In this document: positions 401 through 48,238 of the stretch, one piece after another
How positions within the stretch are numbered: position 1 is the stretch's first letter
How the letters are laid out: every line of letters begins with the position of its first letter
NCBI GenBank assembly: GCA_903813345.2
Contig: CAIIXF020000001.1
Coordinates: 3,596,001 to 3,660,000 of the forward strand
Reading direction: 5' to 3'
From: Owenia fusiformis
Lineage: Eukaryota
Length of the DNA: 64,000 nt
Position numbers and translations under genes: made by a program
Notes under the pieces: model-generated
Databases searched by the model: none
What the model was told of the DNA's origin: nothing
What the model saw: the letters and a program-made list of their open reading frames with translations, nothing else

Positions 401-525
401 TCACGTAAACCTGGTGCACACATGGGCATTGAAGGCCAATATGGCTAAAAGCAACATTAGTTTGGTAGACATGGGCAGAGTTGTGTAGGCTACATGCTTC
501 TCAGTTGTAGATGGTGTACCATTAC
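401..525 (-). CDS. Candidate terminal coding exon, (G)NGTPSTTEKHVAYTTLPMSTKLMLLLAILAFNAHVCTRFT*
   Basis: Open frame ending at TGA (401-403). Phase-1 start is compatible with exon 8276-8319, and the C-terminus is hydrophobic. The acceptor (ctatctccaag|) is weak. Confidence 0.25.
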
Positions 526-3500
526 CTTGGAGATAGCGGGATCACATGGAATCCAGGTAAGCTTAGCCTTCAGGTTAAGTAGACCAAACTTCTCTAACTT
601 CTACACATTGATACATTGATAGCATTCATGATCTGCTACCTTTAACTTTAACGTTGTATTTCAGTTCCCCAAGAACAGTTGATGGTTTCAGGACATTAAC
701 CTCTGCGGGAATTGTTTGATTGGATTAATTGCATGAGGTATTCTTAATTTTCTCTGTTTGTACCTTCCCCAAAATTATAGCTTTCAATTTTGGAAAATAA
801 ATCAATTTGAAAAAATACCGTATCATTTATTTTTAGCAATCCTTATTGTACCTGTATGTTAACATTAAATCCTCTACCAAAGATGGAAGAATTCCTCAAA
901 AATTTGTCTCTATATATCGGTAGACCCATAGTCCCCTCTATCCCACAATTCTTTTAGTCCCACAGTCCCCTTAGTCCCATAATTCCCAGTGGCCATTGCA
1001 TACTTGGCCTAACCAACTTGGTGAGCAATTCTCACGGAGAGGTGGATAACTCCAAGGAAGTAGCAAAGAATACTGATAGCAGCAAATGTGTGTTACCATG
1101 CATGATGCCTCATATCTCATTAGATAACACAGTGAAACTCTCCTAGAAATATCTCTATGTAACTGACAAGGCAAAAATAACTAGTCATTTAAAGTGAGTG
1201 ATACCACATTTACACCTATCATCATTTGGAATTTGTTGTTGAAATATACAGAAATTGAAGATGTGAAAAGTTTGAGATAAATTATATTGAGTATGTATTG
1301 GTTAAATTCAAAATATTATTTTAAACTATTTCTGGAAATTAACAACTAATTTAGTAATGTGATTTGCACTAACAACTGGTCATTCAATGGGTACAAGCAT
1401 TCTGATTTATCCAACCCTCTCGATACGAATTAGAATAAAAATTTCAAGACTTATGGGACAACCCTCGTATTTAATGCTTGTAGAGTATTGTAGAACTCAA
1501 ACTGTGACAAAGGTATTTTTTAATAAAATCCATATTTAATGTTATTGTAAGAAATAACATGATCAATATCATATCAGTTTTTCATATTTCAACAAGCACA
1601 ATTACAACAGAAAAGAAAGATTTAGCAACGACAGAATGAATGTGCATTGTCCATTATTTTCTTAATGATTAATAAATGAACGAGATATTCACTAATCACT
1701 ATTCACTAATTCATCTGTCACCTGACTCATAAGAGTAACTATTGTCCCCATTTAGACAACCCTTTTGAAGAATTAATTTAGTTCACATAATGTTGCAAAG
1801 ACTCCTCTTACAACAACAACAAAAATCTAAAAACCAAATCGGATTAAGTTGATTAAAGTTGCTTTTGAAAAATGAAATTACAGTGAAAGTGTCACATCAG
1901 AAAATAATACCCACTCTCTATGATGAAATTTCATGATTCACTAAATACGAGGTAATGACATCTTGCATGACATGTCATATTATCTTAACTCAGAACATGA
2001 GGTTAGAAATAACAATACAAAAATAAGATTATTGCTACACCAACTGTGATAGTATACAGAATAAGTGAATTAAGACTGAGGTGCCATGTAGCACCCGAGG
2101 TGATTCTAGGTGGGATCGGATTATATACACATGCAACACATGGCCATGTCAACTGCCAGTTCAGATGTTCAGTATGCGTGTGAACAGGCAGTGACGTTTC
2201 CCATTGACCAGATTACTGTAACAGACTGTATCATGAGAAATGGACAATAGGAGGTGACCACTGCCAGGAGAACACATGCAACATCTCCATTCTAATTGGC
2301 TGATGGGAAAGGTGAACAGAAGATGTAACTGACTGATCGGGAGAGTGAAGAAGATATGGTGAACCAGGAAAAGGAAGGCACATGGTCAAGGAAGAGGAAA
2401 TAGAGGAGTCGGCTGATCATAATGTCAGTCAGTTGCAGTCATTGTTAAAGTAGCTTTGGGTGGAAACTGCTGTCCAAAACAAGGGAGAATATCAGTGGGA
2501 ATACGGTGTGATGTTTATACTGTTGATTAGTGCTGTTAGTGTTTATGATTAGTTCCTTGTTTTGAATTCATGTAGTTGTGTAATCACTAGGTGCCATAAA
2601 GCACTACGGAACCAACATAGAGATCACAGAGTTCAAGGTCAAACTCAATTTGGTAAATGAAATCTCCCTCCTCCCTCCACACTGCTTGATAACACCATAT
2701 AGACAGAGAAGACCAACATAAAGTCAGCTACTTGTCTCTGAAGAATGTCTCTGACAATTACGAAAATCGAAACTAACTCAAGGTGAAGCAATCAGCAAGT
2801 TTTCCATCAGTTTGCGGCCATCACGAGATAGCAGTAAATTAAAGCGGCATTATCTTGCTTATAAATCCTCCACGTTCAAGTTTATCAACTTTACTTGAAT
2901 GTATGTGGATTAGCTCTGATTTGTTGAATTAGTACAAATCTCTGCACCCGTGTGGTGTATTAAGATTATCCTGGGATAATATCTGCTATGGCATATTAAC
3001 ACTCTGGGTTATCTTTTAATTATCGTCTGGTGTATGTTAAAACAACATCAATTTGGTATGGGTCTTTATCAATATGATTATCATCACTAATGAGGCCAGT
3101 TATTGATGATATCAAATCATATTCACATTTTATATTCTAAGACATACACCATTATATCCTTTCCCCATGATATTAATGTAATATGAAATTACCAGATTAC
3201 AGCCATAATGGGACTACATGAATCATATATAATACCTTGGTATAATTTCCTGATTAATGAAATGGCTATTCAACAATTGATCAATATTGTACAGTCATCC
3301 ACCCATAGAACCCTCATCATGATCATAATGGTTGATCATGTGTGTTATTATGGTATTATGAAATAAATCTAAATAGAATCTATTGTATCTTCCACTGTGT
3401 GTGTCATATCTAGGATTGCTACAAAGCTGTATGAATTGAGATGCAATAGAATGAATCTTATACCAGATTGCAAAGAAGACACACGGTATGAATGGTTTAA

Positions 3501-3673
3501 TACAAAACATATTTGTTACTGATCAGAACACACAAGGGGCAACATTTGAAATGCACTATTACACTTAAATCACCTTAAACAATATCAAACATGAAAGTAT
3601 ATCCAGAGAAAGAGTCTAACAACTGAAAATATGCAATATGAGTCTACTGTACCCTCGAGTTAGCACATCTAGG

Positions 3674-3770
3674 TAGCACTACTATATGGTACCACTATTG
3701 GCACCACTATATAAACCACTAGTAGCACCACTATATAAAACCACTAGATAATACCACTAAACTACCACAA
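3674..3770. repeat. Short degenerate tandem repeat (GCACCACTATATAAACCACTAGTA-like)
   Basis: Repeated ACCACTA/GCACCACTATATA motifs are visible across the interval. Confidence 0.6.
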
Positions 3771-6700
3771 AACTAAGCTTTCTTTGCATAGTTTAAATGT
3801 TCACTTCCAAGAAGATACCTTAGGGTAGATCACATTTCTGGTTCATTAATCCAACATGCTGAAGATGTCTTCAAATCGAATCTACTTTCTTGTGACATGT
3901 ATAACACATTGGCAGTATTTTTATCTCTACAATTATTCCAAACAGATGGGGGAGATAGATTGAGCCAAAGAGATGACATTCGTAAAGCCTTCCTTCATAG
4001 GAATTTGGCATATACTTCAACAAAAACTTTTTCATATCATACAGTGTCCAGTAAATTGCAAAGATATTTTCAATGACCAAACAAGCTCATTTGTTTATTT
4101 CTAGATCCTATTGGAATCTTCTAACACAAACACAATGCTGTCAACATGTTTCTATCATAGAAGACCCTCTGTAGATATGATATCCCCTGGTCAGCAAAAA
4201 CCAAGAGATAACAATATTATGAAACCTGATCTTGCAGACAAAACTTTTAAAAACCAACAGACTTCACTGAGTGCATCTTCAGGCATTCTGTACTGTACAG
4301 TACAGGGAAGTTTTGACTGACTTTGACCATACGTCTTGAAGGTACTCTAAACTTATTTTGAGGTAGCCCAAAATTCTAAAAATTATAAACGTGCTAAACC
4401 ATATTTGTAAGTTGGGGAGGGGGCATTATGAGCTCAACTGCATTAAATGTTATCACAAGTGCAACAGGCAGCTATTAAAATGATTCTAGGATGCTGGCAA
4501 GAGACAACAAGTTCAAATATGATATGTTCAAGTCTCCACCTCCAGCTGCAAGACATGTTACTTATAGGTTTATTATGATTTAATCATCTTAACTCGCCTT
4601 CTCACGTTTCTCTTTATGAGATTTTTGGTCATTTATTTTCTAATCATCATTAGTAGCTTAACCCCTGGAGGCAGTCAGAAGCAATAACAGAAATAACCCG
4701 AGACAACTGACTTCTGACTTTAACATCTAAGATCTCATTGGGCAGTTTCACAAAATTTGTCCCAAACCCTGTTCCCATAAATCATCTATTACGCCACACT
4801 GGGTGTTCTTAACACTTATGGGAGCAGTTTTTTCTCTTATTTTCTACATGATTTAAAAAAGATTTTCTGTACAAAACATCCAATAAAATTCAATCCACAG
4901 GAGTTCGCCTATAATACTGGGAGTGGTGATACTGCAGCAGGCAATAATGATGAAGTTAAGCAGGACTCTGCAATCATCACCATGGAGATAGGATCAGTAA
5001 GACTTACAGATAGCAGAGATAAAGAAAGTAATTGGGGAGAAATGGCTCGACTGTGTTCTACTTATACACCATTTGTCAGACCTTTACCCTCATTTGTCTT
5101 TTACACTTTAATCTCAGCAGATTGGATCCAATGTATTTCTACTATATTTTTCAGAATTTATTAGCCCGGAAAAGTACAAAATGTGTATAGCATATGAAAC
5201 AAATCTATTCGCTTTGGGATTTATGTATGTGTCGTTTGTTTGGAAAGTATTGCGCTTAATCAGTATTTCCTTAAATCTTGCATTACTGTCCAAAAGTGTT
5301 GGAATTAAATGATTGAGGTCTTTTTATGAGAAACCTCATGTCCAGTGAGGTTGAACTTTACGATGATCGATGACATCTCCTCCGATTCATTTTAATTTAT
5401 GGAAAGTAAAAGAGAAAATACCACATAAACCACCGCCCTCTTATTACAAAGGTGATTTTTTAAGACATTAAATTACAGTTGGTCAAATAGTCTTGACTTC
5501 ATTTTAGAAAGGATTTTAATTATGATTAATGTGGAAGAGTAGGCTATAATTAATGGTCATTTACTTTCACAACACCTGGGACTGAATCTCATGTTATCAC
5601 TAGTGAAAGGTACACATAGTAATATTTATAAACAATTCAGAGAAGCTTTTAGTGGGAAATCTACCTTCCTATGTTTTATGAATGCATTGAATTGCAAAAG
5701 AGCATAGAAATGGTAAAGAACTTAAGAGACAAGAACTATTCAGATTCTGCTAATTGTAGATATGACAACAGCAGCTGTATCATGAACTGCCCGGGGCTGA
5801 GTAAATCATATGTACATTTGCTCATTTCTTTTTGTATGCCTATTGAGACCAATATAAACATTCATTGATTTACTGGGACCTGTTGGACATTCAATGAATC
5901 CCCAATCAAAATCAACATTTTGAAATGATTTCGACAAGAACAGAATACTACTAAGGGTTAATTTAATGTTATTTTACTAACATGCCTGATTAGACCCCAA
6001 TATCTCGAAAAAATCTTTTTTAATACGAAGGATAATAATTTGATCAATAGAGTTATTCTATTAACCGAGCTTGATTGGGGCAGTGATTCTCTATAACATG
6101 CTAGAGTTAATACATTTCATTGATTTATACAAATGTGATCAAAATCAGTTAAAGAAGGAATTGTGTTGGATTCTATGGACGCATTTAACATAGGAATGCT
6201 ACTTTTGAACCAACGCTGATAGAATCAGTCGATGAGGACACTACTTAGGGACCTTTTCCGACCCCTCTTTATGCAAACAAAAACATTTAAAACAGTTTTT
6301 ATTCATGTCATGATTGATTTTTGATGAATATATTCTGTTTTAAATCAAATCAAAAAAGCTCCTGTCAGCTTGAAAAAGTGTATTAATAAATGGGATTTGA
6401 AGACATAAGTAATGGCTCATAATGTCCAATAGATCAGGAAACCACAAGATAAAATTCAAAAAACTTTTGAACAAAAAAGCATTCACTTTATCTTATTAGA
6501 ATGATAAATCACTTGTGCCATGACTCCAATTTATCAAGGAGGATCTCCATTCAAAAGAAAATGATATATTTTTGACATGGGGGCTGAACTCGTGTTCTAC
6601 GGACTGCTCTTATATTATTTACACAGTCAGACAAGATACATTTTTTGTTTTTTACTCCTTGGCTGTAAAGTTCTGTATAACTCAGACACACAGTGGATAA

Positions 6701-8275
6701 CATTCGTGTTTAAGACGATAAAACCTTGTTCAGTTAAAAGGTGAAATGATGGATACAAAATAAAATGGTGATATAAATAATGATACCCATTCATCAAAAT
6801 GTACAGAATAACTACAAAAAACATAAAAATAAAACTTTCCAACTGATTTAGATCTACATATTTTCTAAATGTCTTAACAATAATCTACTTTAAAGGATAT
6901 AAAACGATTTGACTTTTCTGGATTTTGAACCCTGTTGCGCCTCCAGATGAGCAAATTCTAGTAGAAATAAAATAATAAAATCTGGGTAAAATTCAATCAG
7001 ATTCTACATGATGGATTATCACTGAATGTGTTATATTATTGTTGCCTATTTGACATATTACACAGACTTAACAGTGAGCATAATTTCTCAGGGGGAAAGT
7101 TAGTTCATTTAAAGTGACATCCCCTCTAACTGCTGTCATAAGATGACAATAGAGTGTCATAATAATGAAGATAAATAACATTTATGGATAGTAACTGTCT
7201 ATTTAAAAAGGTTTCTGATCATGTCTGCTTTGTTGAAACCAACTTCAACAATTGGTGATATGAAAAGTATTAATCTATAAATTGTGAATCAGGAGACAGA
7301 TTCTGCCAGATTCCTGTATTATATTGGCCTCCTCTGTATTTTGGTCTGTTTCTATTCAAAGCAACAGTCTTGTGGACTTTCATTATGGGTCAGATTTGGT
7401 ATGTATATGGTAGGGATGGGGGAGGGGGCTGTATACAGGGTTGAAGCTAGACTAGAAAAAATGTTGAATCCCCATCAACTAGAGACACTACCCTCTCACT
7501 TTTATAGATGATTTTGATGCTGATAAGATCTTTAAAATCTCAAATGGATCTTGAATGGCCTTTTATAGAAGAACGTGAAATCAGAAAATAATGTTTGATT
7601 CTTATATAGTGAAAAACATTGTAATTTTCATACTAACTACATTAGACCGTAGATTTATCTCTAGCTTGAGGCACCTAGACTGAGTTTAGGTCTTGCAAAG
7701 AGTCGAGAAGTCAAGAAATTGTGTTCCGACTGTCTAGATTGGATTTTCTCTTTGAGAATTCTACTTGTGTTTGAGTGCTGAGTCACTGAGATTGCTACTG
7801 CATTGTTTGCATTCACTTATTTCTCAGAGATCATCAGACACCAGTTGCATACTGATCAACTAAAGCAAGTATAATTGAATTAATACAAAATGAGCAGCTT
7901 GCCTTCTAAAGTAAGACACAATAAGCCCATATTTCACTCTCTGTAAATTACTAGATATGCAGATGTATCTCTGGATACTGATGGTTTCAAAAGGTACAGT
8001 CGGAATTACCATGGACTTGAATTAAACAATTTATAAACTGAGTTATCATGGTACATCATGTCTGTGTTTGCAATAGAAGACTGAGGATGCATTGGACTCA
8101 AAGGATATGATGATTGCTTGGCTCTAGAGAAAACAAAAACCTTTTACCCTTAAATTTTATTTGCATTTACAGTAAATGGGAATAGTATATAGAATATAGC
8201 TGAATACTGATATGTAAATTACAAACAGAACCCATTTATAAAACAATGAGAATAGAAAATATATTTTTTACTTAC

Positions 8276-8319
8276 CGCCTGGTGCTTGAGTGGTCGCCAT
8301 AGGAACCGTATCACTGAGT
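8276..8319 (-). CDS. 44-nt micro-exon, (G)LSDTVPMATTQAPG; coding, or 5'UTR plus start codon
   Basis: Minus strand reads tttctcctatttgtttgcag|ACTCAG...CCAGGCG|gtaagtaa. This has a polypyrimidine tract, CAG acceptor, perfect GTAAGT donor and forms a GC/CpG-rich island in AT-rich DNA. Confidence 0.65.
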
Positions 8320-8864
8320 CTGCAAACAAATAGGAGAAACTGCATTATTATCCAGTAGCGGTCCATGCTTGCGAATTGAGACATAAATCTCCCTATTATC
8401 ATATCTCCGTGTATCTTCATGTAAAACATAAATGTTGGGAATGTCAGAATATTACTGAGAAGATAATATATTCCACAACACAAGGTGGTCTCCTATTTAT
8501 CTCTCTAACTTCATCAGTGTAAATAAAAAGCAAATATCCAAAATATGAGTTCCAAGTTTTATGTTTTTTTATAATCAAATTCTTTCTTGATCCCTATGTC
8601 CAGTCTGGTGTAGATAAAACTGAGAAAATATCAATTCTGTAGTTTCTCTATATTTCCACACTGTCAGGTATAATGGATGTTCTACTCTGTATTTGTACTA
8701 TTTACCAACACATGAGTGGTAAAGTGTCTTGAGTACTTGTGTGCACTGATTTCCTTAATGTTTTAGCCACAAATTAAAAGCCTAATACCCTGCCTGATGA
8801 AAGACCTTATTTCCCTAGCAGAGTGCCAGCTTAGAGAAATACCAATAAACTTTCAACAACTCTT

Positions 8865-9715
8865 AATTCTCCCTTTCGCGGTTCGCTTTTTGAATCAGAA
8901 CGTTCGCAAATATGCAGTGAAGAAGCACTCAAAAAAGGACAAAATTTGATAGGTCAATATTTTCCCACTATGCATTTCGCGTAGACTATTTGCGTGACCC
9001 GAAAGTTCTAAATGAAACTAATTACGCAATTTTGTTTTTACACCCGCACGCTAAATAAAACAATGACACCATCGGAAGTATTCTTCTTTGTCATTGCTTT
9101 AATAGTCAGTATATCGAGTTTAATCAATAAAAGATTGACAAAATTCGGAAACGAGTACTATAGATTTGCTTTCGGACCACTGAACAGATTGACCTAGATA
9201 ATAGCGACGAGTCTTCATTGGTCTACTGCTCAGTTGTTTGTGGGTTTTCAACGTAACTCTATAATGTAATTTGAAGATGAATACTTTTATTCAGTTGTTG
9301 CATCGATGTTGCAGTTTGAAGTGCGGTAAGATTGGCATGAAAGTATTGAAAGTCGAATGGAATTGTTTTTTCCAATATGGCGACTAGTCAACTGATCACG
9401 TGACCTTCTTTTCCGGAATATTTTCTCACTTTTCAATCATCGTTTTCACCACGCTATGAAGGCAATACAATGAAAAAATAGCTGTTGTATTAAGATTAAT
9501 AAGAGATCAATCGTTTCTTATAATTTTTTCTGTTCTCTCGTACGGGAATATGAACGAATATATCGTTTGAAAAATAGGTGTGAAAATCCCCATGTTAAAC
9601 CTATGAGGGAAAACAAGGAAGTATAAATTTGTTCCTCCGCGAACTGCATCATGGGAAATATTTTGACCATATAAGGAAAGATTTTCGCGTCTCCCCTTTT
9701 GAAGAGGGAACAACG
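8865..9715. mobile_element. CpG-rich degenerate non-autonomous DNA transposon/foldback remnant
   Basis: Imperfect inverted repeat 8949-8984 vs 9635-9670, and local CpG enrichment relative to the flanks. True termini and TSD not resolved. Confidence 0.5.
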
Positions 9716-12700
9716 ATTACAATAATTGCAATAATCTCTAAAGTATACTAATTGGGCACACATATAGAATGAGATGCAGTGCTGATTGTTTTCTGTTCTG
9801 CAATAATCTCAGATAATCCTAACACCAGTGCAGTCCAGCTCTGTTTCCCGTAGTTATCACTTCTAACCCTAACTCGATCAATCTGCTACCTCTCAAGTAA
9901 ACGTTTCAATCAATTTACAACCAAAATTGATTCCATAATTTTTGTGTCTATATAAAAGTTTTCTAGTCGTGCGTGTATTGATTTGGTTCAAACTCAGTAA
10001 TAGGCAGCTCATCAGTTGCTTTCAGGTAATATCTCCATCGCATCACAGTCCGTTTACATATCAAGTGATTTCTGCCCAAGACTAATTCATCTGTCTACTT
10101 AATCAATATCTACGTCCTCTAGACCACAACAATAAACTAATTGCACCGAAACCATATATCTGTGTTATATCATCACTAACTTGATTAATTTTGTGGCCAA
10201 AGTCACAACCTCTCTTTATTAGATCACACTAATCTATAATAGATTTCCAGGTATATTTCTTGATGGGATTATCCCAGTGTCTATAATACATGTATGTTAA
10301 CAAGCTAAGTGTTTGATTGCATGTAATTACATGTATTCTATTAAGATTGTGTAATGATCAACAGTGTTAATCGATAATTATGTAAGATAACATCCTCTAA
10401 GATGTTATATTTTTCTTCGCTTTCATAAACAGGTTAATAAATCCAGATGGTTGCTTTTCTAAAACATCAATACTTTCAATAAGCAGAGTATATGTATACT
10501 CTTTATTAAAATCTATTCAAGTGACTGTTTTTTATTTCATGTCCATCGTTGCTTTATAGTATCACTAAATTATATATCATGCCAGCTGCTGGCTGCTTTA
10601 CTCCATTTCATTCCAGTGGTGAAGAGGTGAAGAGGTTACCCAAGTCAGCATCTATAAGGTGAAGTGGTTAACACTGCATTGCCCACACATATATGGAGAG
10701 CCACAGCAATCAACACTGATATCAATGGGGATCATGTGATTGTTTCTTCAAAATAATGTCATCTGATTCAAAGGTCACCTCAGTTCCTGTGCATGTGTCT
10801 TGGATGACAACTAGCTGTTCATCACACTATCATCTCTCCCTGATCAATACAAAAGACTAGGAAGGTTGTATTACAAGCCCTGGGCTATATCTTGAGTGAC
10901 CTATGAGGTTAGATGATAGTACACAGCTCTTCTTCCAAAACAGATGTTAAAGGTCACAATAGTAAATTGTAATTTGTGTATTAGATCCTGTCAAATCCTT
11001 GTTACTGAATGATATCCAAGTTCTCAAGTTTTTGAAGTTCCATTTTATTTCATTATTAATATTTACAACAGTCCAAATAATTTCCCAAAATATGCGTCTT
11101 TATATATTGAAGCCCAGTTTTCAAAAATGTTTATGGAAATTGTTGTGGTCTTCAACAGCAGATGTCTCAAGTAAGAATAACCTATGAACATTTCAGCCCC
11201 ACCTATATCTGTACCTGCAAACTACATGCCAGCCCCCCAGGGTGTATTGTTATCTCACACCTCTCCTTTAACATATACTGTTATGTCACCAAGCGTTCAA
11301 GCCATAAACTTCCCTTTCTTTTAATTACTTCACTTTCCTTTTCTTCTAATTAGATTACTTATCATGTTCATTCAAACTGTAAATAAATTGGGTCTAATTG
11401 AATAATGTCAGCCACTGGTTGTCCACTAGAGCCTGCTGTTTGAATTTCTCACTGTGTATAATGATAAGATATTCTATATGTCCTTGTATCTCATGCTATG
11501 TTATTTTAATCAAGCTTTTTGTATAAATAGCATCAGCGTGAAGAATGATTTCATCGTTTGTTCGGTCGCCATAATTCCAGTATTGTTTTTATTAGAATAT
11601 CGTAATCTTTTGCTATGATATCAAATAAATTGTTTTCATTAGTGATTTTTCACTTAACATCCAATATTCTGTAGGACCATTGTATAGGCATCACGATGAG
11701 TTATGGTTTCCTCAATTTTCATTAACAATATTGTATTATATGTAAATGCCAGTGCTTATTTTACTGCAGTTTTACGACTCCATACTTTTATACACCTATC
11801 CCAGCAAATCGACTGGATACACCAATAATGGGACCAATACGAAGGGAGGTATCATCGACAATAGAACAGTTACTTCCAAAGTAATCATTACCTTTTCAAA
11901 CCCTTTCAATTAAACAAATAAAAACAACATTAGCCATGATGAAGATCACATCAGGTTTTGAGGATTGAATTTTTTTTACATCTGAGTATAACTCGATCAC
12001 GGCGACTTTAGAATTAAAACAATGACATTTAAAATGGTGATTATGATGTTGAAAATATACCCAGGGATAATGATAACATTAAAGATGGTAAATGCTTCAT
12101 TACATCACTTGGCTTTGATCATATAAAAATGAAAACCTTTTGAGATTAATACCACAAGTAGATGATAAAATCAAATAATAGACAAGCCATTTCCTTTGGG
12201 GGAATAAAGACCAACATCAATTTTAGACTAAACTTATCTTCAAAAATGTAACCTCCCAGACATGTTCATATAACAATTGTGTTTCCTGGGCTATTGATTG
12301 TTCAAATGTTGTTTCACTGGGGCCTTCAAGGCCTCTTAACTTGCATTTGGCAAACTTTGGCCAATGACATCAGATTGTTAAAGGTCAAACATTGCAGAAA
12401 TATTATTATAAGAAATTGTGTCTTATTATTGTTCAAAACTTCAAACGCATAAGAGCAAGTAACTTTAGTCAGCATGATATTTTAAAATGTCAATTTACAA
12501 CAGAAATAGACAATCTTAGGAGATTACAGGAGAAAAGAAACCTTTTAAATGTTCAATCTTGCCAAGTTGTATGTCACCCTTTATTGTTAATGTACATAAT
12601 GTCATCAAGTCACCAGTTTTGGATATGTTTCAAGCAGACAAAGATGGTTGGTTTAGCTCAAGGAAGCAAAAGTAATGTAGAAACTGCCAGATTGTCACTG

Positions 12701-13939
12701 CATCCCTGGTGACAAGTCATTTTGTCAATTATTGAGAACTCAACAGTGATACAGCTCCACACATGTAGGGTTTGAAGTGATTAATTAGCAATTGACTGTT
12801 TACTAATTGAAATGTTTAACATAGGCACATGCCTCCAAAAGTAGACAAGAACCAATTAATATTTCAAAACATGTCATTGTTTTATATTCAGAGATTGACT
12901 TCATGTTTGTTTGCTACTTTTGACAAACACTGCTGCCTATGAGCATGGCTACTTGAAAACAATATTCAATGAAACCCCAAATGCTTACTAAATAAATGTA
13001 AAAGCCAATATCACTAACTACAGAAGGAAGATGCTAAATTATCAGAAGCTCCAATCCCCATAATTGAATTATTTATTTATCTCCATTGGTTTATTTACAT
13101 ATTCAATTGAACATGATTTAATGCCAAAATTCATGCCAAGTGGCCGAAAAATAATAAATACCTTTGCAGGTATTCATATCTTCCTTTCGTGTTAACCACT
13201 AGAGATTGCACAACAGTAGGACAATTCAATAATGTTATAGCACATAATTGACATAATTATAACTGGGCTAGTCACAATTTGTCATTGGCCGTCAGAAGGA
13301 GATGCTATTATTGCCAATTAAACATTTGAGCAAGCCTATTATTTTGCTAACATTATGCAATTTGGGGGTTGTAGTGAACTATACATGACCTATGGTGAGC
13401 TTTAAATGTGGCCAACTGACATAGCTCATAAGATCTTATGTATAACAACATTGCAAATGCAATCATAATTGAGATATAGTATATAGTATATCTACATCTT
13501 AATTACTGATTTAAAGTCTCTTAACAGGTGTATCCATGAAGCAGCTAGGCTATACATACATACCAAGACTACCATGGGATCCTGGGCACAAAATAATATT
13601 CAACTACAAAAATACCCACTTCAGTATAATTTCGTGGTTTACTACATATTATTATGGGTTTACATGCAAAGTTGATTGGTACCACACTGGTGAAGGTTGC
13701 AGTTAAAGCCAGGATGAAGAAACTAGTTTTGTATTTTGTGTGAATTCCACATATTTATTTTGGGTCTGATACATAAACATAGTAGCTAAAGCAGGGTATT
13801 GCACCTTAAGAAATGCATAGATATCCTCTTTGATGTTTGTTCAGACATCACACATTGTCCAAACAGGTGATGCCACAACTTCAACAGTTTTTGTCCAGCA
13901 GCTCATAACTGCTACATAGCCCAAAGTTGGCGATGATAC

Positions 13940-14322
13940 GGTATCAACTCGGGCTGTTGCAGGTGCAGGATCAGTTAGGGTTGTTACAGTATCAACTGGG
14001 TAGTTACAGTATCAATTTAGGTTGTTACAGTATTGACCTGGGTTACAGTATTGATTTTGGTTGTTACAATATTTGGTTGTTAAAGTATCAATTTAGGTTA
14101 TTACAGTATTGACTTAGGTTGTTTAGTATTGACTTGGGTTGTTAAAGTATCAATTTAGGTTGCTACAGTACTGGTTTGGGTTGTTACAGAATCAACTTAG
14201 GTTGTTTCAAGAACAGTTTGGGTTTTTATTATACGAACCTGTGTTGTTTAATAAGTACTAAGTTGAGTTGTTACAATTTCAACTTGAGTTGTTGGGAGTA
14301 TCAAAAAGGTTGTTACAGTATT
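13940..14322. repeat. Degenerate ~21-bp minisatellite (GGTTGTTACAGTATCAATTTA-like)
   Basis: Recurrent GTTACAGTAT-(CAA/TGA)-TTAGGTT units. This explains ORFs 13927..14112 and 14176..14394. Confidence 0.85.
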
Positions 14323-15789
14323 AACAGAATGGATATGCTGAGAGATCATAATTTCAGATATGGAATAATACTGAGGCTTCTTTTAAGTAAATAGCTTGGT
14401 GGCTTTGAAATGATAAAAGTAATCAAACAAGAATAATTAATTATAAAACCACAAATGTGAAGAAGCATAGCAGAATCATTCCAATGCTAAATAAAGACAA
14501 ATGAAAATGAAAGGAAAGAAACAATCAAGGAAGAATGTTAGATACCTCAAGAATTTGGTGATATCCCTGATCATTGAGACTCAACCTACAATTCTCAATT
14601 CTCATTTTGATGGATAGCAACAATCCTAACAGCCTTTCTGTGTTCTATGAGATATCCAGTGACAATTCCAAGCAGATTCTAATGACTTGGGCAGATGGTC
14701 GAAAGCTGTAGAAATGTCAATGAGAAATCCCAGGTATTGGGTCAATTTAAGAAGGAATGCCTCTGTCCACATGAGGTGCAATAGGATAACAGTGATACAT
14801 CCTTATTCTCATCCTGGCATTGAAAATATACAGTGAGACCTCTAAAAATGAACAGTCTGGATCAAACTTGAAAACTCAAGCAAATCTAGAACTCAAAACA
14901 CCTCAGTAAAATTATTTCAGTTTTTTTGTAAATGTTTTTTTTCTGATATTTTAGATCAAAAACTCACAAAGAATTTGGCCAATTCATCTACAAAGTTCAT
15001 CAGTTTCAGTTAGGGAAGACAACCTTTAATAATCCCTTGATGAGCAACAAAGACTGTTATTCAACTGATAATAAGTTTCCAAAGTTCGGACTTCATTATG
15101 ATTTACCAAGAAATTAGTTTGGCACACAACTTAATATCAATCATGTTAGCTCTTATCTTGTGGTGAAAAACAAAGTTTATTGAAACAGTTTCAAATGAAT
15201 TTGAAGTTGATAAAAGATGTAAACAATGAAAATGTATCTATATACACATACATAGTGAATAACATTGATCGGTATATAAATGATGGATTGTAGTGCCCTT
15301 TCATAAATCTCACCCTTCCCTCTGGGCTTCATGGTATTGTTTTAAGCTTTACAAATTTTAACATTTTCAAAATGTAAATTTCTAATAAATAAATCTAAAT
15401 ATGAAATTCAGTCATCATATCATGTCAACTGTCTTATATTGCCACTGTGCCTCAGCAGTTAAGTATTTCAAGAAAGTCAACATCAACCCATTGTTAAATG
15501 TAATCCATTTATGTCAATACCTTAAGAGAATAATGAATTTCCACTTTGTGTGCCAACAGACTCGGGCAACAAAATTTACTAATTAAAACAATTATTTAAA
15601 TATTTTCAAATTGTCATAATGGAGTATTTACCTTGAGGCATTTGCTATTTAAGGAGGACCTAATGGTCTCAAGGAGGTGAGATAAATGGTCTGGACTCTA
15701 TGAGGAATACTAATAATGGATCACTCAAGTTGTAATTGGATAGAAACAATGATAATTCACAAAGTTGTTTGTAAGCACACATTAGGGAC

Positions 15790-15941
15790 TTAATCATTTT
15801 AATAGCATTTGCTCTCTTAGAAAGTAGAAAATATTTGACTTGGGATGTACATTTTAAAGGTGCATACTTGCCTTAAAGGGAATTTAATCATTTAAATAGC
15901 ATTTGTTCTGTTAGAAAGTAGAAAATACTGGACTTGGGATG
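15790..15941. repeat. Local direct duplication (~58 bp, 94-bp spacing)
   Basis: TTAATCATTT..TAGCATTTG..TTAGAAAGTAGAAAATA..GACTTGGGATG occurs at 15790 and 15884. Confidence 0.8.
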
Positions 15942-16003
15942 AATAAAATACAAAGGTGAGAATTACATGGACATCATATGGGATCATTTGTTCAAAGCTT
16001 ATA

Positions 16004-16109
16004 TAGTAAAACCATACCAGGTGTTCATATTTCAAGGTATCTTAACATTTGGTCAATTTAAATAAAAGTGTTCAAATAAGAGAGGTGTTCAAAAATATAG
16101 GTTTTACTG
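16004..16109. mobile_element. Tc1/mariner-pogo-type MITE remnant
   Basis: TA|TAGTAAAACC ... GGTTTTACTG|TA termini, with internal GTGTTCA repeats shared with other copies in the window. Confidence 0.6.
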
Positions 16110-19100
16110 TACCTGTTTAAATGTACTAAATAAATAAGTTCTCAAAGTGATCTTAAAATCCCCAAAGGCCAAGAAGGTAGTAGATAGACAACTCTCTTTT
16201 ATAGTCTTGCTTCAAGACTGTGGACCTCCTCCTCCTCTGTCCTTATCTACTTCACCAACATAATGTATGTAGTTGGGGGGGGGATTCACAAGGGCTTGGA
16301 GTTTAGACTCTTTTAAAACTATTGAAAATTACAATCCAAAAAAGGATGGCAGTTGAAATTGTTGTAGAGACAGTGCCGGTTAAAGCTGATTATAGTTAAG
16401 TAGAAATATTTATCAAGAACACTCATTTCATATTGACGGTGACTCTAAAAAGCATATAAAGTGGCTATTATCTTCTTATGTATCACTCATACCTGACACT
16501 GGTTTACCTCACTGATCCCTCATAAAACTCAACACAAGAAAATAACCAAGTTTTTCAGCTTATTGTTCAGGCAATATCATCCCTTCTATTTTAATAATTG
16601 GTGATTTACTGGAAATCCAAGATGCAACTTACCTCTGTGGCTATAGAATTGAACATAATATGAGATAGAGAGATTAAAAGAGACTTGATAAAGGAGTCCA
16701 TCAAGCTAGAAGGGGCATTATCAATCCCATTAATACCATAACACATCATCTGCAGGATATAAACAATAAGTGCAGCGATTACCTTGTCAATTTCATAAAA
16801 AATACATATTGACATACGGGTAAATTACTTGGATGCGACCTGGCGCAACTACAAGAGGTAATGTACCGGTACATCCATATGAAAACTTGAGATAACATTC
16901 TCAAAAATTGTTTATGGAGACATATCATGAACGAGTATATAAAAAACTTAAAGAGATGTAAATGGTATCTTTTTGATCAATGCTGGGCATAATTACTTGT
17001 CCCTAGTTTATTTTCATTTTTCCTGGGATCAATTAAAACTCCTTGGAGCGTGCTTGGCGCTGGATGGTCCAGTGTCAAAATGGTAATTACAGTGATTAAT
17101 GCTTTATTATAGAAAACTCATTAATCGATCTCCTGTGACCATTTTACAATAGATTGAAATTTCTTGAAAGCGTTGCTATGGCAACAGGGTAAATCTATAA
17201 ATCATGATGATTAATTAGGGACCACTTTAGCCGGGGAATCTATAGTTTAAGCGCCCCTATGTTGATCCTAGTTGACACAGTGAGATTACGAGGACTTTTG
17301 TGACATGTTATCCCAGAGGAAAAACATGGTTTAGAAAGGTGAATGTGGTTTCACAAAAACCCTTTTGTAAATTCTGCCCACACGTGTCTTTATTTAACTT
17401 CATAGAAATTTCAGTGACTGGCACATGTTTTTTACTCATACTTTTTCACCTGGAATATTAGTTTCTCTTATTTGAAAAAATGCCCTAGTACATAAAATAC
17501 AAACCAACGATGATGATGTCAAACTTCAATGCGCTCAACAATAATACGAGATAAATTATGAGGTGGCACTTTTATCTCCGCTACTTTCGCATAAAGCTCA
17601 TCTATTTGTATACAATTCATGACAGACCTTATGGTGTCATCTTAGATTAATGAGATTCATTATCGAAAATTAATGTAAATTTGAGCGAAGTAATCCCAGC
17701 CCAAGTAACCACTAGAAATGCATGAATCTGCATGTAATGATGATATATAAGCATGTAATTCTGCATGAGATAATCTGGCATCCAGAGATAATTAACTGAT
17801 TTGAAACTTGATCCTTGCAAGAGCAATGTGTCATCACAGTGTAAAGCATCCATTGTGTGTATGGTGTCTGAGATTTGAACGGTTGACACCTTATTGCTGT
17901 GGGTCTAAACAGTAGCTAACGCTCTCTAGCTTTAGCTATTGGTTTATAGGTTTTACCTTTGTTTTTATAGGATTAAGAGATTATGCTGAACAAATTGGGG
18001 GATTCACCTATATATATTGCGCTATCGTATTCCTAGATCGTATCTCAAGGCTCATCAATGCTATCGGAAGAATTCATCTGTTATATTTAAATGAAAAATG
18101 GATGTCAAAACATATTCTATTTTTTGGTTAAAATTAAGTTTCCTCAATATATCAAATTCAATTTTACAGTTCGATTATACAAATAAACATAAAGCAACAT
18201 TTTAAAAGACAAAAACAAATTTCCTTAACTCTTGAAACAAATTAATTTCTTCAGGAACTAAAATTTTCAGATACTGAATGACAGTTTTATTTAAGATATG
18301 TAACTTGGATAAAAACCCATGAAGAAAAAAGATTTTCATAAATATCATTTTCTCAGATGTATCATATTTACATACAGTATTACTTATTTGCGGAGCTTCA
18401 TGTTATTACTGTTATAGGAGCCTCATTCTGACATCTCTTAGCAGGCGATATCTTGACCAGAATCTGCTTATCTACAATCGCCAATGGCAGAAACCTGTTA
18501 CGAGAAAGTTTACATTAAGAAAAACCTCTATAAAGATTTAAAGGTGATAAAATGGGATAAAGAACTGCAAATAAGCCAAATGATTGAGGTATTAACTTAC
18601 GAAACTGTTTTTTGTTTCACCTGGTTTTACCTCTCAGACCATATGGGTAAAATGTCAAAATGAGCAGGAAAAAATCTAAACTGATGTATTTCTAATAAAA
18701 ACAATGTTTTGGTTCTGTAATCAATTGGATAGAAATGTAACGAAAGAAGGATGTTCGTTCATAACATAGAAACATACATCTCTATTAGCTGCACTCAGGA
18801 GATCATTTATAGAAACAAAAAACAGTTTTTCATCAGAACAAATCATTACTTTTGCATTAAGGCTTTTTTATATTTTATTCTAGTCTATCATGATGAATGA
18901 TTGAGGATCCAGTTATCCCTAATCATGTTTAAGATCCTAGTGAGGCACATAGCTGGGCATATAGCCCAGGTTAATTTACTGCAAACATACACTGATATTC
19001 CAAGATTACGAGATAGTGAACGTAAAATTAGGAAGTCATAAATACTCAGTTTGTACACTTTTATATCATGATTGCAAGAGTTGGTTTGCTTGTTTGATGT

Positions 19101-19585
19101 CATGTTTGTTTGTATGTTTGTATTTATTTAGGCCTACTTGTTTGTTTTTGCAGATGACATAACTTCCTGCCTATCCCCAAATGAATTCATCAATTACATG
19201 TGAAATGGAAATACATACATGTACCTATTAGAAAATGGAACTTATCTAATATGAATTCAGTTAGTTGGATAAATCTACTTACCTTTTCATATCTTATAAC
19301 ATATAAGAGATAAACTAGATCACAACATTGCTTTTAACCTGATAAACCCCTTCAACTCTAAATGTATCCTAAGACATGACTTGGAATAAAATATTATTAC
19401 TTCTCAGGTTTCAATGTTGAAACTTTCACATAAACCCTTTTCAATAACTTGATTTCTCTTTTTAATTTAGAGTTTCTAGGAAACGCTACTTACCTCTGGA
19501 CTTACATACATGATTCACTACATATACGAGGGGTGATTAATAAGTTACGATTTTTATATCTCCATTAATGTATCACACATCTACT

Positions 19586-19716
19586 AATCAACCATTGAAA
19601 TTAGAAAGAAAATCATCTATCAACCATTGAAATGAGAAGAAAACCATAGAAATAAGAAAAGATCATCCATCAACCATTGAAATAAGAGAGAAAATCATCA
19701 ATCAACCATTGAAATT
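19586..19716. repeat. Tandem repeat with ATCAACCATTGAAAT core, 4 copies
   Basis: The core is seen four times at roughly 31-50 bp spacing. Confidence 0.75.
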
Positions 19717-22640: not shown

Positions 22641-22852
22641 AAATAAACTAGCTTCAGTTTTAATTCATAATCTTTGAAAAGCAAATAAAGATTCCTATAA
22701 AATTTAATTGACCATAATAACTTTTAATTAATAATACAGCAGAAGTTGAAATAACGCTTCAATGTCTTCACTAGAAAATTTTGATATTGTTGCTATAGAA
22801 GCTGTTACTGTAACAACTACTGTCAGCATGGTAACATTCATTTGTAACTTAC

Positions 22853-22904
22853 CCCGCAGCAGCAGGTCCGCTTTGTGGAGCAGCAATTACGGCAACCAGG
22901 AGCA
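22853..22904 (-). CDS. 52-nt micro-exon, (V)LLVAVIAAPQSGPAAA(G); alternative frame APGCRNCCSTKRTCCCG
   Basis: Minus strand reads ttttttgtattttatttccag|TGCTCC...GCTGCGGG|gtaagtta. Strong acceptor, perfect donor, about 60% GC island. Its phase-2 end joins in frame to exon 8276-8319. Confidence 0.7.
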
Positions 22905-30279: not shown

Positions 30280-31138
30280 TCCTGAAAATGAGTAGACAAG
30301 ACTTTACCAATCCAAAGTGGCCACCTTAAAATTTACCCAGAATGCCAAAAATTTAGTCAGTTCTAGATTTTCATACTAAGAACCACCCCTGAAAATTTGA
30401 AATTGATCCGTCACACAGTTAACCAGAAAACATGTAAACAAGACTTTACAGACAAGATTTCAGGATGGAAAATCCAAAATGGCTGCCTTGACATTTACCC
30501 AGAATGTCAAAAAACTAATCTGTTTGTAGATTTTCATACTAAGAATCATCCCTGAAAATATGAAATTGATCTACCAAACGGTTCACCTGAAAACGGGTAG
30601 ACAAGACTTTACAGACAAGATTTTAGGACAGAAAATCCAAAATGGCTGCCTTAACATTTACGCAGAATGCAAAAAAAGTAATCAGATGTAGATTTTCATA
30701 CAAAGAATCATCCCTGAAAATTTGAAATTGATCTATCAAACCGTTCTCCTAAAAACGCGTAGACAAGACTTTACAGGCAAGATTTTAAGACGGAAAATCC
30801 AAAATGGCTGCCTTGACATTTACCCAGAATGCAAAAAAACTAATCAGTTCTAGATGTTCATGCTAAGAATCATTCCTGAAAATTTGAAATTGATCTACGA
30901 AACGGTTCACCTGAAAACGAGTAGACAAGACTTTACAGACAAGATTTTAGGACGGAAAATCCAAAATGGCTGCCTTGACATTTACCCAGAATGCCAAAAA
31001 ACTAATGAGATCTAGATTTTTATACTAAGAATCATCCCTGAAAATTTGAAATTGATCCACCAAACGGTTCACCTGAAAACGCGCAGACAAGACTTCACAG
31101 ACAAGATTTTAGGACCGAAAAATCCAAAATGGCCGACA
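30280..31138. repeat. 162-bp tandem array (~5 units) inside the Helentron
   Basis: ACAAGACTT anchor at 30438, 30601, 30763, 30925 and 31087, plus a shortened unit from 30296. Confidence 0.95.
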
Positions 31139-32503: not shown

Positions 32504-35500
32504 TATTACTAGATCAGCATATAAAGGGTACCTTGAGAGAAACTGCTGCCAAAACTAGCTAGAGATCTTACAACATGTGTATTCAAGGACTTTTTATATT
32601 AGAAACATAACTGCATAAAAAGCTGAATTTATAAACGTATCTGGGTTAACACAATATAATCCTGAATTCCTGATGCCAATCAAGTATAATCGCTTTCAAT
32701 GACTTTGTGATGGAATGCTTTCTGTTCAAAAATATTAACCTGGCTGAGAAAGAAATAAACCCAGCACAATCAACTTAAAGCACAATCAGTGTATATAGCA
32801 CAATCAATCACTTCAACACAATCACAATCATCACTGACAATCAAAAGCTGTACATCTGCAGATTTGAGGCAGAGACTACTTGCCAGATGTAGGTACTCTC
32901 AAACCAGGTGAATGATATCTAAATGGCTCTCTAAATGCAATCAGAGATCCAACTCTAATGCTTACCAAGCATCTAATCATGTGAGTTCATCAGCCAAGGA
33001 ACTACCTTCTTCTGATCGGAGTCTTACTTATCAGGGATGGTTCATCAGGCATGGAACTCAACAGTGGTCATCTTACATGTAATTATATCACAGAACCTTA
33101 AGTGTTGAAGATATACGTTACAGGATGTAATAACATTATGATCACTTACACGTAATATAATACAAAACAGAATACGTATGAACTTGAAAACTCCCCTAAA
33201 CATCAATGTAGAAGCAATACTCTGAAATTAGATTATTGCACTAGAAAATCGAAACTCCTAATAAAGATGATTACTTTAGTTAAACTAATGATGGAAGGTG
33301 CTCAGAGAGACTGAAGCATTAGATATTGTTACTTTCAAGCAGACAAGGTGGATTCATTCACCAGAAAATGAAGATTTTTGGATTTCAAGAGCGTGACATT
33401 TCACCTATCTATCTCTAATGACTGGAAGTAGCATGAAACGAGCTGTAAATAAGACTATGTACGCAGTCAGCTTATCTGCTCCACATCTAAAACATGTATT
33501 TGCTTTCCACAAAACATCGGCTTACAGCATCATGAATGGACTTGACATTTACGTTACATCACATTAAGATAAGAACATCGAAATCCCCTACAGCGTAATA
33601 TAAAAAACCACTAAAAATGTAAAAAAATTCAAAATTCTTAGATAGTATGATCTTGGGAATTTGTTTTTTCAATGATACAATTTTTGATAAATTAATTATA
33701 ATGATAGATGTTTTTCAGTGATGATGACATATGAAAGTATTTCATTTAGTTTCACCCAGTTTTAATCTCAAATCTCTAATTATCTCCAGGGTTGGTTGTG
33801 TTTCACTTGAGGTGGACCATAAATGCCCTTCTAGAGCTCTGCCCCTACTTCAGGTCTAGAGATTATAGCTTGTAAACAGGTTCAAAATGATTCCAGCTCT
33901 TTTGAGTAGCTAGCTACCAGTTCAGAGTTCAAACCATCCTGCTCACTGTTACGAAATGTACTTTTCAAGGGGCAATTAATTATTGCTCATTTTGATTAAT
34001 GTTGAATATGATTTGAGGGTCAATTAATGTATAAAGCATCCACTTTCTGACTCGTCTGCACTGTAAACCAGGCCAGCAAGCCGAATCTCGTGTTTTGAAA
34101 ACAAATTAACTTCTTGGCAAACAATTCATTTTGAAAATGGGAAGTTCAAAGGAAGAATAAATTCACATACCAGAGAGATCCAAACTTCGTGGCAGATCCA
34201 GAGAAAATACAGAAATTACAGTTTAAATATTTCAACGGCTTGTAGTTTTTCGACTGTAAGCTTACTAGCTCAGAAAGCATGAACAATACAGAACTGCATC
34301 AAAATCACAAAAACAAGAAAAGCACAAAATCAAAAATGAAGATATACAGACTAAACCAGTCTGAAAACCACAATACTGCAAACACAAATACAACCTCATT
34401 ATAAAGAAAACTGTTTTGCTTTATAAGTGCTTTTACTTTGGTTAATTACAACTTCAGGAAATATTCAACTCTTTTTATCTGAAAAAAAGATTACAGTTCT
34501 TTATATTTATTCTTTGTGCAATAACAAACTGACAACCTCTGGCCCTCATTTTAGATGATGAATAAATAAAACTCACTTGAAAACTTAAAAATGAACTTCT
34601 AATTGGATTGAACAGTCAATGATATTTGTGTGGTATTCCAAGTTATTTGACACACAGGGTGGGATGGGATCAAACAAACTTGTTTTTTCAAGTTGTATAC
34701 TTTAATTCACAAGAAAATAAAACTATGTGCAACCGAACTCCCAAATCAACCACTTTTTCTGACTTCTCAATGCACCTTTGAATCAAACATAACAAAGGTC
34801 GGCATTATTGCGATGGCCTGACTTTTAGTATTGTGCTATATGGGATTTGTATGTGGGAACTAGCCCAGTATTTGGTAGGTCTGATACTTTATACACTGAT
34901 AGAAAGGTAAATAGACAGAAAGGTAAGATGATCTATATGAGCTGAACATGACACCCCTTGTTATGTTCCTCCCGCCTGTGTTATTGTAACGAAATGAATG
35001 GCTCAAGAAAGCAGTGAAAACATGCAGGGCCGCAGTGTTACTAAACTCCAAAAATGCTACAAAAACTGTGTAAATATCCACAGATTGGTGAATGTCTAAC
35101 ACAATTTAACAGTATAGACTAGCACTACAAAGAATTCGCAAAGTTTATTCTCAAACACTTGATCTGTGTGTGCATGTTTGATATGTAGCAAACCAAAACT
35201 AATGAAAGCGCTATCAAATTATAACAGCTCTATATACCTGCCTTCAATAACTGGCACTTTTAGAGAAACGGCTCTCCAAAATGTCAAATTGTTCGATGAT
35301 TGACCCAAAAAAGCAAATAAATATCTTGAAAAGGCTACTTTCTGCCAACAACCATGAGGATTAAGAAGTACATGTAAATACCACTCACCTAAAGGGATTA
35401 AGAAAACACGAGGATCATTAATCTGTAGTAAATCCATACTTGGTTAGTTTTAACTGTTGTCCTAGCTTGAAGAAGTCAGTGGTCAATAGCGTGACTTGAT

Positions 35501-45656: not shown

Positions 45657-46053
45657 TTGATTTAATTTGGTGATTACTACATAAAATAATAAAAAAAGAA
45701 TTCCCAAGGCAGATTTTTTAATTTCGATATCCATCCCATATCGAAGATCTCTAAATGTTCCGGAGAAGCAAATCTGCCAAAGTACATAGCATCAAATTAC
45801 CATAACCTACAGTACCATAACATGATTAATCATCAAAATACACAGACAGAGGTTACTTGATTTAATTTGGTGATAACTAAATAAAATAATAAAATAAAAA
45901 ATAATTTTTTCAGACAGATATTTTAATTTCAATATCCATCCCATATCGAAGATCTCTTGTTCAAGAAAAGCAAATTTGCAAAACTACATAGCATCAAATT
46001 AACATAACTTACAGTACAACAATATGATTAATCATCAAAACACACAGAGGTTA
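45657..46053. repeat. Tandem duplication of a ~200-bp unit
   Basis: TTGATTTAATTTGGTGAT...ATATCCATCCCATATCGAAGATCTC...CAGAGGTTA starts at 45657 and 45857. Confidence 0.9.
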
Positions 46054-46169
46054 TCCTTGGAAGCACCTTGTAATTGAGAACTTAACATGATTTTGATTTT
46101 TCTCATCATATTTCAAAGGTAATATTTGAGCTAAGTAAAAAGTATGTTGTAACCTGACCTACAAAGATG

Positions 46170-46330
46170 ATATTCGACCTAGACTAGATAATATCATTCA
46201 AATGTATGAATTCACCTTGAAAGGTAACATCAAACATGTGAACTTCAAAGGTAACATTCAATCTAAAATATGACTTTTAAGGTAACATTTAACCTTGATA
46301 TGCAACCTTCAAAAAGTACCTGTGATATTC
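46170..46330. repeat. Degenerate ~30-bp tandem repeat (ACCTTCAAAGGTAACAT core)
   Basis: AAGGTAACAT recurs at about 46221, 46248 and 46279. Confidence 0.55.
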
Positions 46331-48188
46331 AAACAAATCATATGACCACCATTTGTATGTTTGGCATTTAAATGGGATCAAAAACTTGATAAAACATGGG
46401 AGATAATAGACAAAATAATAGGTTCAAGTGCTGTAACAAGACAATAATCATCAAACTTACTATAATAAAAAAGAAATCTGACTAGCTGTTTTACCACTAA
46501 ACTGTTAAAATATCAAATAAGTAAAATGATATCACAAAAATAGACTACCACTGGCCCCTCTAGGTTGGTGGGCCCCATGGTGGTTAAATCAAGAGAAAAC
46601 CTGTTAAAATGACATGCGCCAAATGTAAGTGTTTATCTCTGCGTTCTGTTTTTACCTGCTCCCCAATTAGTCCAATTATTCCTGACACTTGGATAAACAT
46701 GTTTGTTGCCTTTATCAATTAAGCAATTATAATGATGGACTCGTGGACTGGCTTATATTGATAATCTTGTACTAAATTATCCAGAAATAAAAAATCATTT
46801 ATCATCATCAGTGTTTATGCCGAGTCTACTTGTAGATATAAACATATCTGGGATTTTTACATCATATAGATCTTGTTAGAAATGTTGGATATGATTTTCA
46901 AATGTTACGATGTCTCTAATTGGAAGAATGATGTCTTCCTCTACATCTTATGGTATTTCATATATTGCAGATTGCAGAATTTGAAACTGAAAACAAGTTT
47001 TAAATGCAGATTTGCCTTATCGAAATATCTGGTGTTCATACTTGTGGTTCAGATGGTTCAAAATATCATGAATAAACTAGATTTCAATTTTGGTCAATCT
47101 CCAACTAACTTCATTGTTAAGGAAACATTGAAACATGAACATCAGCATTCTGAATACTTTTGGATGGTCCCATTTGGATAAGATAGGTTTTCAAAAGATT
47201 GCAGTGGTAAAAATGGCTACTGAGGATCTACCCGTATACTCGAAAACCCAATGCTACTTGACATAATTCCACACAAAAACCTATTGGAGCAATCTTTACT
47301 GCCAACGCCACATTTAATAACTATTTTGTAAAACTATTAACCTTATTAGATGATCCAGATGGTAAAGAATATGAAACAAATGATTCATAAGAGCAAACAA
47401 TAACTGCAACTTCCATATCTTGTAATAGACTTTAACTTCATTATGGAATGCTATTGTGTTTTTATTGAAATTGACATGAAGTCAAACAATGTAGGAACAA
47501 TCCAATTTTAATTGTACAAAATGAATCACATCTCATTTATACTAGACCAGTATAGTAGGGATTAGCATAAGTAGTTAGTACTTGCTAGCATCAATTGCAA
47601 TTTCTCATCCCCTCCCCAAACATTGAGACACATAGAGCAAGACTCGATGATCATGATTTGACTATAAGACTAAACTACATCTATAACAGCAGCCATACAG
47701 CATCAGTTATATGATATTTCAGAGAAAGGTGACAATGAAGGCATCATTAAAAAACACATTTGAAATCAGTGTTCTTCCCGAGATTGATTTCCTCAAAGTA
47801 TAAAATTCTTGTTTAACCAATTCTTGCCAAACATGATCAAAATATGCTAATTTTCATGATTTCTGTCATCTTTAAGTGACTTTCTGCAAATTTCAAGCTG
47901 ATGCAGTCTCTTGACATGCTTCAATGCTGTGGATCACATCCTATACTAGTATAGACATCTCAATAACAAATAACAAAAAAAAAATTAATGATCTAGAAAT
48001 ACAGATTTTTTCATGTATTCTATGTTTTTGAGAAAATAGAGTAAAAATAGAATAGAAGTTCAAAATAGAATGCCATCTATAGAATTTAGGAGGTAACTAA
48101 TCCTGCAATATTACCAATATATTCCACCTGTAAATACCAAAATCAATAATGCAAAAATAGCCAAATAAACAGGAAAATGTCAAAGAAC

Positions 48189-48238
48189 CTGCCAGCGGGT
48201 GAAACAGTAGCTTCATTTCGGACCATTGCTTCCGGCCA
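48189..48238 (-). CDS. Candidate start-codon exon (MKLLFHPLA from 48216; alternative MVRNEATVSPAG from 48226)
   Basis: GC/CpG-rich island preceded on the minus strand by a long polypyrimidine tract (48250-48276) and CAG. The donor CAG|gttctt is weak. Both frames stay open when joined to exon 22853-22904. Confidence 0.35.

Follow-up and report, generated by a model that had tools for sequence, protein, structure and literature searches.

Two micro-exons in 64 kb of Owenia fusiformis DNA and the 5′ end of a Ror receptor tyrosine kinase gene

The window analysed here is a stretch of 64,000 nucleotides (nt) of the annelid Owenia fusiformis (contig CAIIXF020000001.1, positions 3,596,001 to 3,660,000), and it raises the question of whether a small gene is scattered over its minus strand. 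An earlier note had joined four minus-strand segments, 48189-48216, 22853-22904, 8276-8319 and 401-525, into a frame for an 82-amino-acid secreted or glycosylphosphatidylinositol (GPI)-anchored mini-mucin, and had offered the alternative that the middle two are the 5′ part of a larger gene continuing past position 1. The alternative is correct. The window almost certainly contains the 5′ end of the minus-strand O. fusiformis gene for the Ror receptor tyrosine kinase, and both micro-exons are the already annotated front of Ror, not a new gene. The two middle segments stood as exons, and the two outer segments were not confirmed. Positions are those of the window; positions outside it are given as window equivalents in the same numbering.

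The micro-exons in RNA and in the public record

RNA reads were placed on positions 3200-23199. They came from three raw RNA runs of one study, X13, X14 and X15, of which about 6, 6 and 12% was read, and from the contigs of X16, a run only guessed to be RNA. The raw runs were taken by their species label, a run search with 7500-9000 having listed none with RNA. The joint between exon 2 (22853-22904, minus strand, 52 nt) and exon 3 (8276-8319, minus strand, 44 nt) has CT..AC ends at 8319/22853. It was found in one read of X14 and in an X16 contig with a depth of 23, while X13 and X15 had 0 such reads. In some transcripts 8276-8319 is thus an internal exon. On the downstream side of exon 3, 43 reads of X15 had loose ends at 8275 with an agreement of 0.99. 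All 30 of the 30 displayed letters equal the start of an immunoglobulin (Ig) domain exon, unlike the segment ending at 525. This Ig exon starts at contig position 3590073 (window equivalent -5927). Both the exon 2-exon 3 junction and the exon 3-Ig junction are present in RNA.

A protein search with the kinase part of the left flank returned CAH1772423.1 (P0001) from O. fusiformis at 100% identity. The record is an 864-amino-acid "unnamed protein product, partial" and is the sole member of its cluster. It maps exon by exon from window position 35437 to window equivalent -21348. Residues 1-16 map to 35437-35390, residues 17-34 to 22853-22904 and residues 35-49 to 8276-8319; the remainder maps to nine exons of the left flank. 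The first coding exon of the record (35389-35437, minus strand, 49 nt) ends in phase 1, has the donor gtgagt and holds the start of the predicted signal peptide. The small coding exons of 49, 52 and 44 nt are followed by introns of 12.5, 14.5 and 14.2 kilobases (kb). On the minus strand of the left flank, two Ig-domain exons begin 5.9 kb past the window edge, and then come the exons for the Fz domain, the kringle and a long transmembrane-plus-kinase exon. The Fz, kringle, transmembrane and kinase exons all lie within 22 kb.

The record and the genomic model represent the same gene, with both micro-exons spliced to the Ig exon. They differ in that CAH1772423.1 ends 100 residues short of the genomic stop (964 amino acids predicted) and lacks the probable long proximal first exon described below. 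The record breaks off inside a run of Gln residues, and the genomic frame runs on for 100 residues (contig ~3574349-3574651, minus strand). The end of the 964-amino-acid frame is similar to the tail conserved in Rors of molluscs and annelids.

The assignment to Ror follows from the domains. Pfam matches in CAH1772423.1 are I-set at residues 56-143 (E 1.9e-14), Fz at 210-324 (E 2.9e-12), Kringle at 354-433 (E 7.3e-23) and PK_Tyr_Ser-Thr at 509-781. The Fz domain is followed by the kringle, as in Ror receptors, and the exons mapped to the left flank. An Ig domain precedes Fz, and its I-set exon is the exon joined by the RNA reads. The presence of an Ig domain ahead of Fz varies between species in the Ror family. 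The best PDB matches of CAH1772423.1 are ROR1 (424 bits), ROR2 (394), MuSK (371) and Trk (305), and the protein is 49% identical to the Aplysia ror precursor (P0014) over 871 columns. In the YXXDYY motif, Y676, D679, Y680 and Y681 are invariant in 8 of the 8 aligned proteins. By the PDB bit scores and the motif comparison, the kinase domain is nearer to ROR than to MuSK, NRK or Trk. The kinase reads DFG at residues 668-670, and its Gly loop is GEGAFG.

Judged by hydropathy only, the small exons supply a predicted signal peptide and linker of a type I receptor. The leader reaches a hydropathy of 3.39 over 10 residues, and a hydrophobic run at about 445-468, found by eye, is a candidate for the single transmembrane segment. 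Exon 2 would code the hydrophobic core of the signal peptide, as the earlier note had correctly read, together with its end; exon 3 would code a short Thr/Pro linker before the Ig domain. In this account, the exons of 49, 52 and 44 nt would code the signal peptide and the short linker and would be spliced in frame to the Ig-domain exon. The Fz, kringle, transmembrane and kinase exons, going by what is known of the family, would complete a type I membrane receptor. Members of the Ror family bind Wnt through the Fz domain and act in Wnt signalling, and by family knowledge the Owenia Ror may do the same through its own Fz domain.

Some points weigh against this account. Among the loose ends listed, the junction from 8275 to the Ig exon was displayed for X15 only, and the reads are a sample of about 6-12% of each raw run. 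The data leave room for a rare or stage-specific isoform ending in 401-525, which lies beyond the read-placed stretch. Exon 35389-35437 also lies beyond that stretch, and it rests on the public record and on its donor.

The outer segments of the 82-amino-acid frame

The arithmetic of the four-segment model is sound. The coordinates, the length (28+52+44+125 = 249 nt), the GT-AG ends, the phases and the 82-amino-acid translation were all reproduced. Splice sites were scored with our own approximate weight matrix over 244 kb, made up of the window and 180 kb of flanking sequence. The scores are a rough guide, since neither of the true micro-exons was among the only 5 candidates that an exon scan gave at its cut-off. 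Of 13,538 minus-strand GT sites, the gtaagt donors of exons 22853-22904 and 8276-8319 are among the best 18 and 23. The strength ascribed to the splice sites of the two middle exons was borne out at their donors, and the exons are real and spliced to each other in RNA. The first donor and the last acceptor had been called weak, which the scores confirm. The donor after 48189, gttctt, is non-consensus and is equalled by 2,039 of 13,538 GT sites; the acceptor at 525, AAG with a poor pyrimidine tract, is equalled by 614 of 12,980 AG sites. Between 22960 and 64000 there are 369 phase-1 first-exon candidates (ATG to GT). Twelve of these have a GTRAG donor; 35389-35437 is one of the twelve, and 48189-48216 is outside them.

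A separate or alternatively terminated transcript of the four segments, coding for a mini-mucin, is very improbable on this evidence. In its favour are the open frame with GT-AG ends, an AATAAA 520 nt beyond the stop codon and the hydrophobic tail coded by 401-525. The tail has a hydropathy of 3.18, a value reached at the 745 AG sites of the intron by only 2 distinct open reading frames (ORFs), the tail itself and one at window equivalent -2550. A hydropathy of 2.5 is reached by 5 ORFs among the same 745 sites. Since a second, equally hydrophobic ORF lies in the same intron, chance suffices to explain the tail. Further points against the mini-mucin are the two poor outer splice sites, the different first exon of the public record and the absence of any Pfam family in the ORF frames 404-523, 8271-8492 and 22852-23091 (0 in 3 of 3). 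With an agreement of 0.99 over the X15 reads, a join to 525 could account for hardly any of them.

No spliced transcript ending in an exon with the hydrophobic tail was found; in X15 the 8276 donor continues into the Ig exon, the reads having been placed on 3200-23199 and the segment 401-525 lying beyond. The earlier note had itself named the joining of 8276-8319 to a different downstream exon as an outcome that would tell against its gene, and this is what the 43 reads display. A stand-alone protein is thus not supported, and the mini-mucin gene is largely refuted. The small protein had also been put forward as unannotated, and both micro-exons are already present in CAH1772423.1.

The segment 401-525 (minus strand) is single copy in the genome and most likely plain Ror intron 3, given its AAG acceptor and the reads that leave the 8276 donor for another exon. 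The segment 48189-48216 (minus strand), with its gttctt donor and with the first exon of the record elsewhere, is most likely non-coding DNA lying ahead of the point where Ror coding begins. Both most likely fit the frame by accident. The window edge lies 5.9 kb before the first domain exon, which allowed two real exons and two false ones to be combined into a convincing mini-gene.

A probable proximal first exon and a candidate second leader

Upstream of the 8319 acceptor, the RNA points to a further form of Ror. In 3 of 3 raw runs, coverage on one strand (minus) is continuous between the 8276 donor and about 11200 and crosses the 8319 acceptor. First-mate-plus depth in X13/X14/X15 was 16/13/33 at 8448, 14/18/42 at 8712, 15/12/54 at 9898, 13/12/38 at 10970 and 4/12/28 at 11060; the opposite strand had a depth of 0-1. 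Depth was thus about 4-54 at the listed single-copy positions from 8448 to 11060, and it was 0.5-1.2 in the bin 11204-11870. All bins from 11871 to 21208 had a depth below 1 except one (up to 2.4, mostly from the other strand).

We consider it likely that a second promoter of Ror, a proximal one, lies near 11200-11260 and drives transcripts whose long first exon continues across the 8319 acceptor and ends at the 8276 donor, with the long form dominant in some samples and the distal micro-exon form in others. The near-zero depth at 11871-21208 indicates that the coverage is not whole-intron retention, which was rejected as its source. Multi-mapping was rejected as the source of the flank coverage, since both flanks of the repeat inside the long exon (8864-9722, below) are single copy in the genome. 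The bin of exon 2 had depths of 0.28/0.16/0 in X13/X14/X15, and X16 showed the opposite pattern. Its bin depths of 1.55 and 1.89 fit the micro-exons alone at depth 23 (expected 1.52 and 1.82), its depth was 0 in 9870-11203, and the long 8276-11214 form was absent from its contigs. The 43 junction reads of X15 had a median of 78 loose letters of 151. If the reads are untrimmed, about 73 letters of each would be placed, more than the 44-nt exon can hold.

Several observations count against a proximal promoter. No pile of molecule starts appears near 11200 among the starts listed, and an exon beyond 3200-23199 could be spliced to the AG at 11215, where a loose end may stand outside those listed. 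Matches of 44-52 letters are harder to place, and the micro-exon form is therefore underrepresented in the ratio. The contrast between samples sets three runs of one study against a run whose RNA origin is a guess. On balance, 8276-11214 (minus strand, sharing the 8276 donor, upstream end approximate at ~11200-11260) is probably an alternative long first exon of Ror, a hybrid first/internal exon, absent from the public model. If it is real, the public model lacks the form that dominates three runs, and probes on exons 1-2 would miss it; it may be relevant to Wnt/Ror in spiralian development.

The long exon encloses a dispersed non-coding repeat of about 855 nt (8864-9722), present in the assembly and skipped in the RNA animals. 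The joint 8863/9723 was found in 5, 11 and 25 reads. It spans a gap of 859 nt and has TA..AA ends with 5 ambiguous letters. Of 670 candidate matches 40 were scored, and these 40 are full length at 94-100% identity, giving at least 40 copies. The repeat has 5-letter repeat flanks and a short hairpin near one end. An intron at 8863/9723 is ruled out by the TA..AA ends and by the multi-copy repeat. The difference is a presence/absence polymorphism of the repeat, which is missing from the RNA-sequenced animals.

The frame of exon 3 is open over 8271-8492, and an in-frame extension above the 8319 acceptor (8320-8366, minus strand) begins at ATG 8366, with A at -3 and G at +4. It codes a signal-like leader of 16 residues, MDRYWIIMQFLLFVCR, with a hydropathy of 2.73 over 10 residues; the polypyrimidine tract provides the codons of its hydrophobic part. 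Tentatively, and with less than even confidence, Ror may switch by stage or tissue between the distal promoter, with the micro-exon signal peptide, and a proximal promoter with a 2-kb first exon. In one form the 47 bases would then act in splicing, as branch region plus polypyrimidine tract, and in the other they would code a second signal peptide. If so, this double use of a splice acceptor as signal-peptide sequence would make a small but elegant example of overlapping codes.

We give about an even chance to a different reading of the coverage over 8320-11200, in which ATG 8366 is unused and the RNA is non-productive Ror RNA, regulatory or decay-prone, or yields at most a signal-less protein from ATG 8300. 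Without the repeat, the leader of this RNA measures 1,989 nt and contains 37 upstream ATGs, 5 of them in strong context, which makes translation from ATG 8366 doubtful. There is no step up in depth near 8400-8500, so that most molecules carry the whole leader. A human parallel lies in ROR1, whose signal-less variant is described as predominant in the available text of PMC9599429; in that of PMC11274362 the variant gave no protein when expressed. Against a non-productive RNA stand the position of ATG 8366, in frame and in strong context, and the rarity of such leaders. Among 741 acceptor-like site/frame pairs in the 244 kb, just 3 give one, 2 of them in strong context; the threshold was set from this case, so that the fraction should not be read as a clean probability. 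The two signal-like N-termini before the same Ig domain in oyster Ror records also count against a non-productive RNA. A search for short protein fragments with either N-terminus gave 0 of 1,539 candidates at E <=1e-15, and so no independent record of the alternative leader. Among the papers listed in the literature searches, none has a title or abstract start on Owenia Ror isoforms.

Surrounding features and comparison with known systems

An ORF scan of the window gave 8 ORFs of at least 100 amino acids, none of them relevant here; the longest is a retroelement-like fragment. An ORF of 361 amino acids at 60103-61188 (plus strand) has a weak zf-RVT match (E 0.009, below the Pfam cut-off) and probably represents the terminal part of a non-LTR retroelement ORF. 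Tandem arrays lie at 30309-31133 (period 162), 49009-49388 (period 39), 13966-14228 (period 21), 61283-61510 (period 94) and 261-373 (period 28), the last just beyond the stop codon of the 82-amino-acid frame. At 21534-21574 and about 16094-16112, short stretches collected many loose-ended reads of both strands in all runs, as is expected for fragments of multi-copy repeats.

Outside the window, minus-strand ORFs between window equivalents -44700 and -55600 contain many FG repeats and recurring W-x-C-x-x-C motifs, and we take them to resemble a Nup153-type nucleoporin. A frame of 224 amino acids at -31671 to -32342 (minus strand) has a signal-like start and dibasic sites. On the other side are a presumably RING-like ORF at 73471-73680 (plus strand), an ORF of 537 amino acids at 76690-78300 (minus strand) that we take to be receptor-like, and presumably serpin-like ORFs at 117000-119551 (minus strand).

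CD24 and CD52 are small GPI-anchored glycoproteins. The conceptual 82-amino-acid peptide is like them in being hydrophobic at its start and in its tail, with a short Thr/Ser/Pro core between. It differs in that its core is the Ror linker, and its NGT sequon and tail, both within 401-525, most likely come from Ror intron.

The gene itself shares the Ig-Fz-kringle-transmembrane-kinase order and the YXXDYY motif with the Ror family, as represented by Aplysia ror and the human ROR1/ROR2 structures 6tu9 and 4gt4. The N-terminal 48 residues of the Owenia protein are unaligned with Aplysia Ror, and the alignment begins at residue 49. In the available text of PMC2772990, RORs are defined by a Cys-rich region and a kringle, and the Gly loop of NRKs is given as GQGAFG, which differs from the GEGAFG of the Owenia Ror.

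In oyster and amphioxus, Ror isoform records (P0036-P0042, P0059-P0061) have N-termini that differ before the Ig domain, which suggests that the use of alternative 5′ exons is recurrent among Ror genes of invertebrates. The oyster pairs P0036 and P0039, and P0041 and P0042, resemble the proposed Owenia forms in having two different signal-like leaders before the same Ig domain, and differ in that their leaders have, by eye, no sequence likeness to those of Owenia. Hybrid first-internal exons are described in the available text of 10.1101/2021.05.27.446076 as exons that are internal in some transcripts and in others close a first exon, with differences between samples. The data there are human. 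The present case is from an annelid, with a probable first-exon form of 2-3 kb and a possibly coding polypyrimidine tract. The pattern of the Owenia exon at 8276 across the runs would fit that definition.

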